Origin: a virus
IMG/VR virus record: IMGVR_UViG_3300009159_000067
Location: 2,922 to 66,921 of that record
Reading direction: 5' to 3' (one strand)
Length of the DNA stretch: 64,000 nucleotides
Shown: positions 686-55,469 of the stretch, in pieces
How the letters are laid out: each line of letters opens with the position of its first letter
Position numbering within the stretch: the first letter of the stretch is position 1
Program-made: the position numbers and the translations under genes
The notes under the pieces: model-generated
Seen by the model: only the letters and a program-made list of their open reading frames with translations
Databases searched by the model: none
What the model was told of the DNA's origin: nothing

Positions 686-715
686 TTTGTTTGTTTAAAA
701 TATTTCGTATATTTG
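686..715 (+). promoter_or_regulatory. Bacteroidota sigmaA-type promoter (TTTG ... TATATTTG)
   Basis: TTTG 686-689 and TAnnTTTG 708-715; no ORF downstream. Confidence 0.65.
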
Positions 716-717
716 CA

Positions 718-801
718 TTGTGATTGAAGACAACCTATTTAGATACAATTGATCACAAAATTACGGGGAGGGTCAACGATTTAGATACCCTTCCTGTTTT
801 T
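718..801 (+). ncRNA. Candidate two-hairpin small RNA
   Basis: Stems 718-727/749-758 and 763-773/787-797 with G-U pairs; both carry ATTTAGATAC; ends in a U-tract. Confidence 0.55.
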
Positions 802-1210
802 ATTTACTCAAAACTAATTGGTCTTGGGCAACTAATAACCCAAAACTATCAGAAGATGGAAAAATTGTAAGAATAAGTAATGACCAATAATTGTCGTCAT
901 TTATTGTTGCAAGAATTGCGAAATCAATTTTTGATTCTTTATCTTTAATAACAAACTTATCTCCATCAACAATATAACCATTTATAATTGCTTCTGCAAT
1001 ATCTCTTTTATATTTTTCAATTACATCAATAATTTTTTGATTGGAAATAATTCTATCACTTAGTCCTCCCCTACCTAGATTTGACCTATCTCTTGTATGT
1101 TTTGATGTGGAGATGTCAAATCCAAATGTTACTTGGAATGTATCAGAAATTTGTGCAATTTTTCTTTCAAGTAATAAATGTTCTTTAATTAAATTTCTAA
1201 TATTTTTCAT
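800..1210 (-). CDS. Leader-bearing hypothetical protein, possible RNase-like fold
   Basis: N-term MKNIRNLIKEHLLLE; SKHTRDR motif; TATTTAT upstream. Confidence 0.6.
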   Translation of the reverse strand: MKNIRNLIKEHLLLERKIAQISDTFQVTFGFDISTSKHTRDRSNLGRGGLSDRIISNQKIIDVIEKYKRDIAEAIINGYIVDGDKFVIKDKESKIDFAILATINDDNYWSLLILTIFPSSDSFGLLVAQDQLVLSK

Positions 1211-1268
1211 ACAAAAATAAATATTTATGTTTGTAGTATTTTTGTATCTTTATAATAATTATAATACA

Positions 1269-1419
1269 ATGAGGAACACAATGCGTCATATTGTCTTTAG
1301 TAAACAAGAAGAAATTTGTTGTTATAAGACATGCGTTGTGGTCTTGTGATAGTTTAGTATAATTCCTGAAGAGTTATATATACAAACCTCGGACTACAGA
1401 AATGTGTGTGGGGTTTTTT
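1269..1419 (+). ncRNA. Candidate long-hairpin RNA with 26-codon ORF and terminator
   Basis: CACAATGCGT/ATGCGTTGTG and TGTCTT/AAGACA arms; GAAA-capped terminator 1384-1419. Confidence 0.4.
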
Positions 1420-1439
1420 AATTATATGTATTTATCTAT

Positions 1440-3360: not shown

Positions 3361-3546
3361 ATGTTTAATCATCTTGTTCGTTTTATTGTTGGCTTGTTTA
3401 TTTTAACTGGCGTTTATTTCTTTTCTCTTTGGCTATTTGTCGAATGGTATGATAAAATATTCTGGATTGTATTTTTGATTATATCATATGTTGTTGGATA
3501 TTCCATTGATTCTTTCTCTAAAAAAAATAATAGAAAAAAATATTAA
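3361..3546 (+). CDS. Small two-TM membrane protein
   Basis: Two hydrophobic segments and a basic tail. Confidence 0.6.
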   Translation: MFNHLVRFIVGLFILTGVYFFSLWLFVEWYDKIFWIVFLIISYVVGYSIDSFSKKNNRKKY

Positions 3547-3571
3547 GTTCTTGTATTAGTATTTATCTATT

Positions 3572-3967
3572 ATGAAATACATTATTACCGAGGATCAGAA
3601 TGATAGACTTAAAAATTACATCATAGATTATTTTGATAAATATCTTACTCCATATGGTGGATGGAAGCCTCACAAAGAATATTTGGAAGAGCTTAAAGAT
3701 ACCAGTGGTGAAATTTTTTTCTTTTTTGAAGAACTTCGTGATGAGGGAGATATTGAAGATTATCCTCATATAAGGTATTATAGCTGCAGTAATTTTCTTG
3801 TTTCCCGATATGACTGTCCCCTTATTGTAATTTCTGATAAAGTATTTTGTGATCTTAATGCTCTTCCCGTTGATTTATGGAAACCAATTTTTATTGAATG
3901 GTTTCAGGGTCACACCAAACTTCCACTTAAAAAAATTAATACTTTGAATGATCTCGAATCTGATTAA
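3572..3967 (+). CDS. Leader-bearing protein, WKPIFxEWF family
   Basis: MKYIITEDQ leader; C-terminal DLWKPIFIEWF. Confidence 0.75.
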   Translation: MKYIITEDQNDRLKNYIIDYFDKYLTPYGGWKPHKEYLEELKDTSGEIFFFFEELRDEGDIEDYPHIRYYSCSNFLVSRYDCPLIVISDKVFCDLNALPVDLWKPIFIEWFQGHTKLPLKKINTLNDLESD

Positions 3968-16111: not shown

Positions 16112-16207
16112 GGTTGAGGTAGCTCAGTTGTGTGGCATTACCACACATAGGTAGAGCATCCGTCTGAACGCGGTGTGCCAGTGGTTCGATTCCACTCCCA
16201 ACCACCA
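16112..16207 (+). tRNA. Aberrant tRNA-Phe(GAA)-like RNA with D-loop hairpin insertion
   Basis: Acceptor GGTTG(A)GG/CCCAACC, T-arm AGTGG-TTCGATT-CCACT, encoded CCA; 6-nt anticodon loop CTGAAC. Confidence 0.65.
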
Positions 16208-47055: not shown

Positions 47056-47127
47056 GGCCCCGTCGTCTAATGGTTAGGACGCTACCCTTTCACGGTGGAA
47101 ATTTCGGTTCGACTCCGTGCGGGGCTA
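47056..47127 (+). tRNA. tRNA-Glu(TTC)
   Basis: Cloverleaf, anticodon loop CTTTCAC; TAAATTTG promoter 47039-47046. Confidence 0.9.
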
Positions 47128-47132
47128 CAAAT

Positions 47133-47223
47133 GGAGAGATGGCAGAGTTGGTCTATCGCGCTTGACTTGAAATCAAGAGATCTTGAAAGGGATCCGTGGG
47201 TTCGAATCCTACTCTCTCCGCCA
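47133..47223 (+). tRNA. tRNA-Ser(TGA)
   Basis: Class II cloverleaf, loop CTTGAAA, G73, encoded CCA. Confidence 0.93.
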
Positions 47224-47226
47224 AAT

Positions 47227-47298
47227 GGTGACTGTGGTGTAATGGTTAGCACGAATGATTGTGGTTCATTTAGTCAGGGTTCGAGTCCCGCTGTCACA
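47227..47298 (+). tRNA. tRNA-His(GTG), slightly degenerate
   Basis: G-1, loop TTGTGGT; T-stem bulge; A instead of C at position 73. Confidence 0.75.
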
Positions 47299-47434
47299 CA
47301 AATAAAATTTAATGTTATGGTAGTATTATTGATTGTATTAGTTAGTTTTTTGATAGCAATACCTTTGGCCAAAGAAATGGCAGAAGTTTATGGAGACGAT
47401 GACCCATTTACTAATTGGAGAAAAAAAGATTAAT

Positions 47435-47659
47435 ATGAAAGTAAAAGTTATAAAAGATAGTACAGACATTTTTCCTCATTTGTATGAAGGATCGGTAATA
47501 CAGAATGTTGAAACCAAAGGTGATAATTATTATGGTGTATTTTCATCATTTATGGGTTCATATTATGTTGAAATTCCAAAAAAAAGATGTAAAAAATTAA
47601 AAGATGAAACTAAAAAAAGTAAGAACATTTTCGGAAGCTGGCAAAGACCCAAGAGTTGA
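47435..47659 (+). CDS. Hypothetical protein
   Basis: ORF within tRNA cluster. Confidence 0.5.
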   Translation: MKVKVIKDSTDIFPHLYEGSVIQNVETKGDNYYGVFSSFMGSYYVEIPKKRCKKLKDETKKSKNIFGSWQRPKS

Positions 47660-47822
47660 TTCCATTTTCAGTGAAATTGATAATTTTGAAGATAATAAAC
47701 CTGACTATTGGATAAATTTAAAAGAGGGTTATATTTGCAAATCTATGGATTGTGGTATAATTCATGAAAGGACTGTTAAAAGATGTTTATGGTTATTAAA
47801 TAATGATGTAATAAAAAAATAA
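47604..47822 (+). CDS. Hypothetical protein
   Basis: ORF. Confidence 0.55.
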   Translation: MKLKKVRTFSEAGKDPRVDSIFSEIDNFEDNKPDYWINLKEGYICKSMDCGIIHERTVKRCLWLLNNDVIKK

Positions 47823-47825
47823 AAT

Positions 47826-48059
47826 ATGAAAGCAATATTAGAATTTAACCTTCCTGACGATCAACAAGAATTTAATTTGGCAAATAGCGGTCTTAAATTT
47901 TGGAGTGTTCTTTGGGAATTAGACCAAGAATTGAGAGCAAAAACCAAATATGCTTCCGATGATCTTCCTCAAGACAAATATGATGCATATCAAGAAGTTA
48001 GAGATAAACTTTATGAACTAATGTCAGAAAGTAATCTTAGCTTTGATATGGTAAGATAA
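47826..48059 (+). CDS. Conserved small phage protein
   Basis: MKAILEFNLPDDQ motif. Confidence 0.65.
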   Translation: MKAILEFNLPDDQQEFNLANSGLKFWSVLWELDQELRAKTKYASDDLPQDKYDAYQEVRDKLYELMSESNLSFDMVR

Positions 48060-48067
48060 GGAATATT

Positions 48068-48141
48068 GGTCAGATACCCAAGTGGTTTAAGGGGCTTGTT
48101 TGCAAAACAAGTATTCGTCGGTTCAAATCCGACTCTGACCT
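48068..48141 (+). tRNA. tRNA-Cys(GCA)
   Basis: Loop TTGCAAA, U73. Confidence 0.9.
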
Positions 48142-48147
48142 CAAAAT

Positions 48148-48219
48148 TGGAGTATAATTCAGTGGTAGAATGTCATTCTGATACGATGAAAGTCGGTGGT
48201 TCGAGTCCACCTACTCCAA
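48148..48219 (+). tRNA. tRNA-Ile(GAT)
   Basis: Loop CTGATAC; acceptor TGGAGTA/TACTCCA. Confidence 0.85.
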
Positions 48220-48234
48220 CTAAAATAAAAAAAT

Positions 48235-48549
48235 ATGAAAAAACTATTATTCATTATGTTTTTGGTCCCAATTTTTTCTTTGGGTCAAGAAAAAATCAAA
48301 TTTACTGCGGCAGGCATAACTTGTTCGATGTGTTCAAGCGCAATTCATAAATCACTCCAAACTGATAAATCAATCATTAAAATTGATCCAAATTTAAACA
48401 CTCAAGAATGGTATGTTGAATATAAATCAGGAGAGTTCAATGTAGAAAACCTCACCAAAAAAGTTGAGGATGCTGGATTCAGCATAGAAAAAATTTACTT
48501 GAATGATAAACTTATTTTTGACAGAAAAAATAAGAAAAAAAAGAAATGA
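48235..48549 (+). CDS. Secreted heavy-metal-associated (HMA) domain protein
   Basis: Signal peptide; GITCSMC; VEDAGFS. Confidence 0.85.
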   Translation: MKKLLFIMFLVPIFSLGQEKIKFTAAGITCSMCSSAIHKSLQTDKSIIKIDPNLNTQEWYVEYKSGEFNVENLTKKVEDAGFSIEKIYLNDKLIFDRKNKKKKK

Positions 48550-48644
48550 AAAATTTTTTAAAAAAAATTGTAACTTTCCTTAAATTAGTTGAAGAAAAAC
48601 GACTTGAATATATGGAAAAGTCCGGTTGGGGAAAATTATAACAC

Positions 48645-48717
48645 GCGTGCGTAGCTCAATTGGTAGAGTACTGGTCTCCAAAACCAGGAGTTGTAGGTTC
48701 GAGTCCTACCGTGCGTG
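48645..48717 (+). tRNA. tRNA-Trp(CCA)
   Basis: Loop CTCCAAA, G73. Confidence 0.9.
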
Positions 48718-48722
48718 CAATT

Positions 48723-48840
48723 AGTCAGGTGGCGGAATTGGTTAGACGCAGTGTAAAGTGTTACCGATGTAGATAGGTAACTGGTCACGCAGCGAGATAG
48801 CGTACACTTTCTATTACAGGTTCGAATCCTGTCCTGACTA
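48723..48840 (+). ncRNA. tRNA-scaffold RNA without anticodon arm (branched insert)
   Basis: Leu-type acceptor AGTCAGG/CCTGACT, D- and T-arms intact; middle is a junction with two AGATA-loop hairpins. Confidence 0.7.
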
Positions 48841-48965
48841 CATAATGAGAAATATTGTATAAATAAAAGTTTATTAATACAAAAAAATTGATTAACTTTA
48901 ATTTATTAGTATTTATCATAAAAGTTTTTGTTTAATACAAAAACATAAAAATTAAAAAACCAAAT

Positions 48966-49925
48966 ATGTCAAAATTTTCAGAAAAAGTTTCAAGTTTAAA
49001 CCATAAAGTTGTTTATGGTGTTTTAGTTGTATTATTGTTATTATCCTTTGGATACATTTATTATTCTAATAATAAAAGTACTAAAATAATCCACGAAAAA
49101 GAGATACAGTATCTCCAAATAGATTCTTCTAAAGATGTATTGCAGTTGCAATATGATGAATCTATTTTAAAGTTAAATTATCTAACTAGTCAAAATTCTG
49201 GGTTGGATAGTATTGTTAAAAGAAAAACAAAAGAATTAAACATTTTGAAAGATCGTATTAAAAAAATAATACATAAACAAAATTTAACAAATTCAGAATT
49301 TCGTAAAGCTCGTAGATTAATTCAGGTACTTAATGAAATGATAGAAGATTTATCTAAAGAAAATGATAAATTAAAACTTGAAAATCATAAATTATCAGAA
49401 GAAAAAGAAGTTCTTATTGTTAAAAACAATGAACTTGAAAAAGTTCTATTAAAAACTGAAGAAGAAAAGAAAGTAGCAGAAAATAAAGTTGATATTGGAA
49501 GTACTCTTTCTGTTTCAGATATGAAAGTTATTGGAATTAATGTTAAACACAATAAAAAAGAAAAGATTACAGATAAATTTCAAAAAATAGATAAATTAAA
49601 TTTATCATTTAATGTTAATGAGAATAAAATATCTAATAGCGGTACAAAAGAAATTTTCATTATCGTAATCAATCCTTTAAATAATGTTATTTTAGATAAA
49701 TCTTCATCAGGATCATTTGTTACCAGAGAAGAAGGTGAAAAAGAATATACAATAAAAACAGCTATTGATTATAGACAAGGAGCAATACAAAAATTTTCAT
49801 TTGATATTAATTTGAATGAAAAATATGTTGACGGTGTTTATAAAGTAAAAATCTATGAAAATGGATTTAAGATCGGAGAAAGTAATATATCTCTAAAAGA
49901 TAGAAAAATATTAGGTATTTTATAA
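48966..49925 (+). CDS. Membrane-anchored coiled-coil protein with beta-sandwich C-terminus
   Basis: N-terminal TM, long heptads, G.YKV.IY..G. Confidence 0.7.
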   Translation: MSKFSEKVSSLNHKVVYGVLVVLLLLSFGYIYYSNNKSTKIIHEKEIQYLQIDSSKDVLQLQYDESILKLNYLTSQNSGLDSIVKRKTKELNILKDRIKKIIHKQNLTNSEFRKARRLIQVLNEMIEDLSKENDKLKLENHKLSEEKEVLIVKNNELEKVLLKTEEEKKVAENKVDIGSTLSVSDMKVIGINVKHNKKEKITDKFQKIDKLNLSFNVNENKISNSGTKEIFIIVINPLNNVILDKSSSGSFVTREEGEKEYTIKTAIDYRQGAIQKFSFDINLNEKYVDGVYKVKIYENGFKIGESNISLKDRKILGIL

Positions 49926-50030
49926 GTTATAATAAATAATATTAAAATGGTCATCAAATTTGGTGACCATTTTTTTTAAATAAAAAAGTCAGACATTTCT
50001 GTCTGACTCCAAAACCTAATTACAAAAAAG

Positions 50031-50195
50031 TTACTTCTTTTTTGAAAAGATAGACCAGGTTGCACCAACAAATGTAATCGCACCGCCCAATAGTTCTTGA
50101 ACCATAACATCATCAGCATATCCTTTAATTACAAGAATACCTCCAATGAATGTAAATGCGTGTCTAACGATACCTAAAAGTTGTTCTTTTGTCAT
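50031..50195 (-). CDS. Small two-TM holin-like protein (54 aa)
   Basis: MTKEQLLGIVRHAFTFIGG...ATWSIFSKKK; TATTTAT upstream. Confidence 0.65.
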   Translation of the reverse strand: MTKEQLLGIVRHAFTFIGGILVIKGYADDVMVQELLGGAITFVGATWSIFSKKK

Positions 50196-50340
50196 TTTTT
50201 TTTATTTAATGGTTTATGATAACTATAAATATCTTTTAACTAATCTAATTAATGTTTTTTATAAGGATTCCTCTAAATTAAATTAGGGGGATTTTTTTTT
50301 GATCATAAAATTATTTTTTTTATATTTGTATGTAAAATAT

Positions 50341-50415
50341 GGTCCCGTAGCTCAATAGGATTAGAGCAACACTCTTCTAAAGTGTAGGTTTTGTGTTCGA
50401 ACCACAACGGGATCA
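50341..50415 (+). tRNA. tRNA-Arg(TCT)
   Basis: Loop CTTCTAA; TATATTTG promoter 50321-50328. Confidence 0.9.
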
Positions 50416-50503
50416 CAAAAAATTTTTTATAAAAATTGACTAATGCCATAATTAGTCTTATATTTATAGTACATAACACACATTAAAATTAAAAAACACA
50501 ATT

Positions 50504-55045: not shown

Positions 55046-55469
55046 TGGTGGAGGTGGCGGGAATCGAACCCGCGTCTTTCCTGTTCAACAATAAGTCACT
55101 ACAAGTTTATTTTATTGGTTCTCAACAAACAAATAGAAAGTTCTTATTTTTCCATCAGAACTCACAACTGTGGTCGGTTCCTGTTAAATTGGATTGAACC
55201 GAAAACATCTCCCGACAAATTCTCTGAACTAAATCACGTGGTATTTGTCAAACCTCATGGACTTCTGTTCCAAGGTATATGTCCTTACCGACCCGTAGTT
55301 GTTCTGTACGATTAAGCACCAACAACAGCTTCTTCTCTTGTTAAACCAAGAGCAGCAAGCTTAGCAAATGTATTGCCTGTTATTTTTACCACCGATGTTT
55401 AAAGTCGTAGATGACATCCGACTACTTGCGACCTATTCCTGATACCTGAAATCGAAACCTGTCACCCCC
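55046..55469 (-). ncRNA. ssrA: tmRNA
   Basis: 5' GGGGGTGACAGGTTTCGA, 3' GCGGGTTCGATTCCCGCCACCTCCACCA, G3-U70 pair; tag ORF 55377-55312. Confidence 0.93.

Follow-up and report, generated by a model that had tools for sequence, protein, structure and literature searches.

A predicted small RNA of large freshwater phages displays one 16-letter sequence in two hairpin loops, tail to tail with a probable RegB/RelE-like RNase gene

We analysed a 64,000-nt stretch of phage DNA (hereafter the window) comprising bases 2922–66921 of a 66.9-kb IMG/VR contig, which itself covers about 20% of the phage genome. Near the start of the window, a 299-aa gene ends at position 643 and is closed by its own terminator (653–670 plus T8). 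It is followed on the + strand by a −7 promoter box TATATTTG (708–715) that fits TAnnTTTG, with possible −33 TTTG elements at 686–689 or 690–693 (+) that were read from the sequence and presumably serve in this role; −33 TTTG/−7 TAnnTTTG is what we take to be the promoter consensus of Bacteroidota, the presumed hosts. From this box and the terminator described below we infer that a small RNA of about 85 nt is transcribed (718–805, +), with a 5′ end probably at about 718–720 and a 3′ end probably at about 801–805. Hairpin 1 (+) has a 10-bp stem with two G–U pairs (718–727/749–758; conserved helix, 720–727/749–756), and hairpin 2 (+), the terminator hairpin, has an 11-bp stem, also with two G–U pairs (763–773/787–797), followed by the U-tract TTTTATTT (798–805, +), which overlaps the stop codon of a convergent gene (800–802). 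The same 10-mer, ATTTAGATAC, lies inside both loops (737–746 and 779–788), each time with CAAC before it; it occurs exactly four times in the 64 kb (both strands), two of these occurrences being the loops, 42 nt apart. Two copies of a longer, 16-nt loop motif can be recognized here, ACCTATTTAGATACAA (733–748, +) and AACGATTTAGATACCC (775–790, +), each with two mismatches to AACGATTYAGATACAA; in the window phage, the final bases of the second copy are pulled into the stem. An earlier, sequence-only reading of this DNA had described the promoter, both stems, the U-tract and the paired loop motifs, and we recovered all of them at the same positions.

Folding with RNAfold gave both hairpins on the + strand (−23.3 kcal/mol, z −3.18, 0/200 shuffles as good) versus a weaker fold on the − strand (−15.4 kcal/mol, z −1.23, 23/200 shuffles as good). 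Hairpin 2 together with TTTTATTT has the form of an intrinsic terminator (a hairpin and then a U-run on the transcribed strand); it was missing from a simple terminator scan because its 13-nt loop exceeds the 8-nt limit of that scan. Being a terminator explains the shape of hairpin 2 alone, and neither hairpin 1 nor the loops. The sole open reading frame over the RNA is TTG-started (48 aa, 724..870), crosses the terminator and is antisense to the next gene, and no ATG-started frame longer than 29 aa is found across 39 distinct relatives of the RNA; the earlier statement that there is no ORF thus stands for ATG-started frames and has to be amended for this TTG-started one.

A scan of viral contigs for the double motif returned 88 stretches, of which 86 were chance occurrences and only two, L036 and L028, were true homologues. 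These two are identical in sequence and share 93.5% identity with the window over 93 nt. Homology begins at the promoter (the −7 box is kept in the form TATCTTTG), spans the RNA and continues into the minus-strand gene, and upstream of the promoter the DNA shows no relationship to that of the window. The RNA itself contains five differences, of which four fit a + strand RNA: in hairpin 1, T750C turns a G–U into a G–C pair and A752G turns an A–U into a G–U pair; in hairpin 2, G768A turns a G–U into an A–U pair; and G778A falls within a loop. The remaining one, T773A, breaks the pair that closes the loop. Both contigs also carry, immediately before the RNA, a tRNA-like sequence (L036:1942–2045 and L028:1678–1781, +) with a GGTTCGAATCC T-arm and an insertion of about 30 nt in the anticodon region, for which ARAGORN made no call.

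An unbiased set of loci was then assembled through the neighbouring protein only (18 viral and 11 metagenome loci). The DNA beyond the stop codon was readable in 28 of these 29 loci (L115 ends before the stop codon), and a convergent element made up of promoter, hairpin and T-run was present in 28/28. The loop motif NACGATTNAGATACAA occurred in two copies in 18 of the 28 and in one copy in eight, and L109 and L110 had it in degenerate form only. Across this set, identity of the neighbouring protein falls to 28–40%, and stem sequences are entirely different between clades while the loops hold AACGATTYAGATACAA. Loop conservation had been set as a check beforehand, the sequence-only reading having named conservation of the terminator stem alone as the outcome that would speak against it; what the homologues do is keep the loops and vary the stems, and thus conservation restricted to the terminator stem was not seen.

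A covariance model (R1) was built from 25 distinct aligned elements (A4) and searched in 85 sources, following an earlier suggestion that such a model be applied to related phages. In contigs of related phages it matched 52 copies (39 distinct), including 716–805 of the window (63.9 bits, E 2.6e-7). The stems covary: standard pairs fill 89.9% of 593 cells, versus 38–54% when the partners are slid by 1–3 columns, and compensatory cells number 115 versus 11–22 when slid, in an alignment that, being fitted to R1, leans towards its own structure. Changes on both sides are seen in 15/16 base pairs (8 of the 9 pairs of helix 1, in which 95.4% of cells are paired, and 7/7 pairs of helices 2 and 3), and the covariation score was reached by 0/500 shuffles. 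Many loci had been fetched by the loop motif itself, and in those the invariance of the motif is by construction because the motif was the search key. G–U cells outnumber A–C cells by 56 to 8, and therefore the strand that bears the promoter and T-run is the RNA strand, in agreement with the fold scores and with the earlier proposal that the G–U pairs favour the + strand. In 30/39 distinct copies, a TAnnTTTG box reaches exactly to where the model match starts, at its first base (several of the nine without it are second tandem copies or lie at contig ends); a 3′ T-run of at least four T is present in 37/39, and in about half of the relatives a third hairpin, lacking the motif, sits between the other two.

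These data bear on the simplest alternative, namely that there is no functional RNA here and that a terminator coincides with a repeat that is accidental or acts at the DNA level, for instance as a site for protein binding. A terminator is plausible for hairpin 2 and its U-tract, and the motif copies stand 42 bp apart, which is about four helical turns; against this, both stems covary, including that of the non-terminator hairpin 1, the position of the promoter is conserved in 30/39 distinct copies, G–U pairing is strand-specific and the motif always lies within a loop. We regard this alternative as extremely improbable. Sequence comparison instead bears out the earlier proposal of a self-standing RNA that runs from promoter to terminator and repeats its loop display.

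We compared the RNA with known families. At gathering score, Rfam 15 returned only seven tRNAs and a tmRNA for the whole window, and at E ≤ 10 only chance-level matches to TCV_H5 (13.5 bits) and Yar_3 (9.1 bits) for positions 690–815; three single-hairpin loci gave one tRNA and nothing else. The suggested comparison of the motif with type III antitoxin RNAs and CRISPR repeat families yielded no match in Rfam. No match to positions 600–1300 was found by blastn in 50,697 phage records, and full-text literature searches turned up no mention of the motif, nor of any large phage that combines a RegB-like RNase with a small RNA; a term search of a jumbo-phage survey (PMC7824862) gave no passage about either RelE-like genes or small RNAs. 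The predicted small RNA of these large freshwater phages, with a 16-letter sequence shown twice in hairpin loops, is previously undescribed. Elsewhere in the window, the seven tRNA genes form a cluster (47056–50416, +; confirmed by Rfam and ARAGORN) and the tmRNA gene (55046–55469, −; 95.6 bits) encodes the tag peptide GNTFAKLAALGLTREEAVVGA, and a 96-nt 'tRNA-Cys (aca)' (16112–16207, +) is an ARAGORN call alone, unsupported by Rfam. There is also a G+C-rich intergenic stretch of 120 nt in an A+T-rich region (2219–2340, +), with several short hairpins (−30.2 kcal/mol) and no Rfam match at gathering score.

The gene that converges with the RNA (800–1210, −) encodes a 136-aa protein, a probable RegB/RelE-like endoribonuclease (see below). 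The 3′ end of the RNA falls within −8 to +3 nt of the stop codon of a gene of this family, on the opposite strand, in 28/39 distinct copies; a further four are second tandem copies (L004, L010, L012 and L017) and seven have no neighbouring family gene. Two of these seven (L235 and L239) are weak matches to single hairpins, and five (L164, L188, L126, L157 and L165) are strong copies, the last four lying beside other genes. In L164, the RNase gene is down to a 3′ remnant of about 40 nt fused to an upstream terminator (3540–3703, remnant on the − strand) and lies immediately 3′ of the RNA, which is intact (3704–3820); this locus keeps the RNA and loses the RNase, the direction of loss that would be tolerated if the RNA were the antidote. 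The upstream neighbours of the family gene vary by clade and often consist of the terminator of another gene; as the outer neighbours vary in this way, it is the pair of RNA and gene that is conserved, not the wider region. The tail-to-tail arrangement with a probable RNase gene suggests that the RNA is probably the RNA partner or brake of the enzyme.

The fixed spacing of −8 to +3 nt also speaks for a cis-antisense or terminator element that would control the RNase gene. With the two genes transcribed towards each other and sharing a bidirectional hairpin, the RNase mRNA would end in sequence complementary to the RNA, and duplex formation, decay or transcriptional interference would follow, as in the analogous convergent type I toxin–antitoxin pairs; hairpin 2 comes directly after the RNase stop codon, and AAUUUUG follows the hairpin on the − strand. 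This route is nevertheless distinctly unlikely in our estimation: its − strand hairpins are weakened by the G–U pairs (56 G–U versus 8 A–C cells; z −1.23), an invariant loop sequence is not required for pure antisense action, the identical motif in hairpin 1 and in unlinked single hairpins would be left unexplained, and the protein, with 136 aa and an alpha/beta fold, is not a small hydrophobic peptide.

The two genes of the pair carry different upstream signals. Six nucleotides before the ATG of the 136-aa gene is a TATTTAT box (1217–1223, −), a candidate phage-type promoter or initiation signal, and RTATTTAT is conserved 4–12 nt before the ATG in relatives of the gene. TATTTAT lies no more than 30 nt upstream of 29/95 window ORFs of at least 80 aa, versus about 1.7 expected from its overall frequency, and it probably serves the phage as a promoter or initiation signal of its own, which would make leaders very short; it also stands, usually as RTATTTAT, upstream of the window ATGs at 2365, 3572, 4010 and 6463. 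With a host-type box on the RNA and TATTTAT on the RNase gene, the two are therefore likely to be read by distinct machinery or to differ in timing. We also observed, divergent from the RNase gene, a second non-coding-looking element in the four closest relatives (window 1236–1432, +; loci L092:2765–2975, L112:2270–2475 and L113:2270–2475, all −). It has a host-type box TATTTTTG (1237–1244), a long hairpin and a terminator with a T-run; 4 of the 48 predicted pairs of its consensus show compensatory changes. A frame of 26–32 aa (M.TTMRHIVFSKQ..C.Y...), conserved only in the four closest relatives, lies within it, and the element could encode a small protein, conceivably one that partners the RNase, or be a dual-function RNA.

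The 136-aa protein has 14 close homologues and 63 cluster representatives at E ≤ 1e-3, and sequence searches of it against Pfam, PHROG, NCBIfam, PADLOC and PDB gave no match, nor did Pfam match any of 47 family members. E15, H38 and F86 are invariant in a 47-sequence alignment (A3), with W109, T115 and Q131 nearly so, and D41 and R53 do not vary among the 14 close relatives (A2) but do in A3. An AlphaFold model (pLDDT 77, pTM 0.66), confident from residue 57 on, shows a helix, a strand, three helices and a four-stranded sheet; E15 and H38 fall in its poorly modelled N-terminal part (block pLDDT 48–69). The best Foldseek matches in the PDB were the toxins HigB2, RelE, YoeB and ParE, all weak (E 0.01–0.4, TM 0.27–0.36), and the RegB structure 2HX6 was absent from the best 50 PDB structural matches. 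Nine matches at E ≤ 1e-3 were obtained in BFVD, headed by an uncharacterised protein of Tenacibaculum phage PTm1 (E 4.7e-8) and with a 140-aa 'Site-specific RNA endonuclease', the product name carried by T4 RegB, in sixth place (E 3.8e-5, TM 0.46).

A T4 review (PMC3014915) describes RegB as a cyclizing RNase whose catalytic residues are His48 and His68 and whose structure resembles those of YoeB and RelE; according to it, RegB cleaves the mRNA from which it is made, and an antidote to it may await discovery. When the 47-sequence family was aligned by profile (hhalign) to T4 RegB and to eight RegB homologues, the result was not significant (probability 0.2%, E 0.26–0.27); that non-significant alignment pairs E15/H38/D41/R53 collinearly with RegB E19/H48/D51/R56, residues that are invariant in the 8-sequence RegB alignment, and H38 is the sole counterpart in it of a RegB catalytic His. 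The structural matches, this residue alignment and the RegB review together lead us to call the protein a probable RegB/RelE-like endoribonuclease, and it is most likely a metal-independent, sequence-specific endoribonuclease of the RegB/RelE fold. It is not filed here as a member of the RegB family, as the sequence searches gave no significant homology to RegB. Two other candidates were dropped. DUF4258 (PF14076), for which the only lead was an Atlas feature score of 0.75, had no HMM match in the genome fragment at E ≤ 10 and does not appear among the 25 families listed, out of 29 matched by any of the 47 members at E ≤ 1; PTm1, considered as a cultured model, had no match to the family HMM and carries the motif at chance level (11+7 versus 8+5 in the control).

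We further traced the loop motif away from the RNase gene. A scan of viral contigs for AACGATTYAGATACAA gave 115 distinct instances among the matches listed: 50/115 are hairpins with a second copy within 130 nt, that is, two-hairpin RNAs; 17/115 are single hairpins that have a TAnnTTTG box no more than 45 nt away; 19/115 are single hairpins without such a box, some of them between tRNA genes (L128 and L149); and 29/115 have no hairpin, consistent with chance in coding DNA. Among 131 hairpin instances, G is enriched 2–3 nt before the A-rich motif (86 and 73 instances). The 635-kb genome LR745206.1, from an uncultured phage, has three exact copies, in short hairpins after a host-type promoter and before another promoter, and encodes a family protein (37% identity) without an adjacent RNA; G001 (385 kb, 95% complete) has two copies, and G002 has the RNA–RNase pair plus one further copy. 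In the window, the two loops are the only such sites, the other six of its eight motif matches (3.4 expected), which have 2–3 mismatches, being within chance. Single-hairpin mini-units were also noted in L237, L238 and L239 (all LR745206.1), L151, L154, L156, L133 and others, in the order host-type promoter, 5–11-bp stem with a 16-nt loop, and A-run or T-run, followed by a second, near-identical promoter that would drive a gene or tRNA. ToxI-like arrays were considered for the single-hairpin units and rejected, since these repeat at most about 2.2 times.

That a 16-nt loop stays constant across RNases only 28–40% identical could equally mean that it has a more conserved partner, for example a host factor. 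The RNA would then be a decoy or sponge for ribosomal protein S1, the 30S subunit or a host defence RNase, its loops would be aptamer-like sites, and linkage to the RNase gene would reflect a shared pathway rather than direct binding. Besides the near-invariance of the loop, this reading can draw on the loops found far from the RNase gene, in single hairpins after host-type promoters and between tRNA genes, on a 363-aa S1-domain gene convergent with the RegB-like gene in LR745206.1 (L236:3451–4542, −; PF00575, E 4e-22) and on the dependence of RegB activation on S1 binding to an A-rich single strand, as given in PMC1702504. We consider it unlikely: by itself it does not explain why the RNA 3′ end sits at the RNase stop codon (28/39 copies), and the 67-kb fragment, about 20% of the genome, contains no S1-domain gene.

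Alternatively, the loops could act as seeds with which the RNA pairs to phage or host RNAs containing UUGUAUCURAAUCGUU or a part of it. Conserved, accessible loops are typical of seeds, and two identical seeds would increase avidity. Matches to the reverse strand of the 16-mer are, however, no more frequent than chance in the window and in LR745206.1 (2 at two mismatches versus 2–3 in the control); a 12-nt complement occurs once or twice per genome in five Flavobacteriia (6 in total versus 4 in the reversed control, with 0–1 each); and the genomes of 185,579 bacterial and archaeal species gave only scattered motif matches, spread over several phyla and in keeping with chance (about 550 expected by estimate), with no recurrent host locus among the matches listed. 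These instances lack a hairpin setting, a promoter box accompanies 1/81 of the bacterial and archaeal instances among the matches listed, and L267 and L292 are perhaps phage-like. A base-pairing regulator is, on these counts, very unlikely.

Given its fixed pairing with the nuclease gene, its single-stranded loops that repeat one sequence and the precedents from RegB, the RNA is best read as a ligand or inhibitor: tentatively, we propose that it may well be the cognate ligand of the RegB/RelE-like endoribonuclease, as a substrate mimic or an inhibitor. An approximately 85-nt non-coding RNA would be made from the host-type promoter and ended by the second hairpin and U-tract, each hairpin presenting single-stranded AACGAUUYAGAUACAA (slightly diverged in the window), and would form a conserved two-gene module with the convergent 136-aa gene. 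If the two loops are preferred recognition sites of the RNase, then the RNA would be a high-affinity substrate mimic that either titrates the enzyme by binding it or undergoes cleavage. The RNA would in this way set the timing and strength of enzyme action on its real targets, with an antitoxin-like logic, and a host-type promoter on the RNA versus the phage-type TATTTAT on the RNase gene would uncouple the two in time. The sequence-only reading had assigned the loops to an RNase or RNA-binding protein; this fits the strict linkage to a RelE/RegB-like gene, whereas the host toxin that it named as an example gives way to a phage-encoded candidate next door.

A more specific and rather doubtful version of this proposal is that the two-loop RNA restrains the RegB/RelE-fold RNase as the first RNA 'anti-RegB', the single hairpins being trans decoys or marked cleavage sites. 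Were it true that the RNA restrains or guides a RegB-like nuclease, this would answer the question of a RegB-type antidote raised for T4 in PMC3014915 and would reveal a new way to pair an RNA with a RelE-fold enzyme; if the 'anti-RegB' version in particular were true, it would define a new class of RNase module under RNA control, separate from both the type I and the type III toxin–antitoxin (TA) systems. The comparative data give huge phages, in which non-coding RNA has hardly been studied, a well-supported RNA family and link it to an unannotated protein family of at least 63 cluster representatives, and the invariant 16-nt loop offers a handle for pull-downs and a marker for these phages in metagenomes.

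Among known systems, T4 RegB (2HX6) is comparable to the 136-aa protein as modelled: both are small, basic and phage-encoded, and in both an antiparallel sheet comes after a helix, a strand and two helices. Sequence similarity between the two is not significant. The RegB literature adds self-regulation through its own mRNA and a postulated restraining partner (PMC3014915), a short recognition site whose full form is single-stranded GGA and an A-rich stretch (PMC1702504) and a reported inhibitor that is a protein, RIII, acting through S1 (PMC9409239). The G enrichment before the A-rich loop motif is only a loose parallel to the T4 site. Bacteroidota, the presumed hosts, are not known to use Shine–Dalgarno GGAG sites, and T4 is not known to have a dedicated small RNA next to regB. 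The RelE, HigB and YoeB toxins provide the best solved-structure matches of the protein model, albeit weak ones (E ≥ 0.01), and, unlike in RelE/ParE type II TA systems, no conserved protein antitoxin gene lies beside the family gene. Type I TA systems differ in that the protein here is a 136-aa alpha/beta protein and the overlap amounts at most to the stop codon unless the mRNA reads through.

Type III TA systems (ToxIN, CptIN and TenpIN) likewise link an endoribonuclease gene to a structured RNA that repeats one unit, and share the proposed logic in which the RNA is both ligand and inhibitor. Their antitoxin RNA is a tandem direct-repeat array upstream of, and on the same strand as, a ToxN/AbiQ-like toxin, whereas the phage RNA is convergent, has its 3′ end at the stop codon and consists of two hairpins, not head-to-tail repeats; its protein neighbour has no ToxN/AbiQ, CptN or TenpN match (Pfam, PADLOC and NCBIfam) and matches RelE-like proteins in fold. 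The CsrB/RsmZ sponges are also stand-alone, terminated RNAs in which several hairpins share one short conserved loop sequence; the phage RNA differs from them in its motif (16 nt, not GGA), in having two copies, in lacking an Rfam match and in that no CsrA-like partner is known for it. The RNA–RNase module proposed here thus works like a type III TA system or a protein sponge, yet it departs from the defining features of each.
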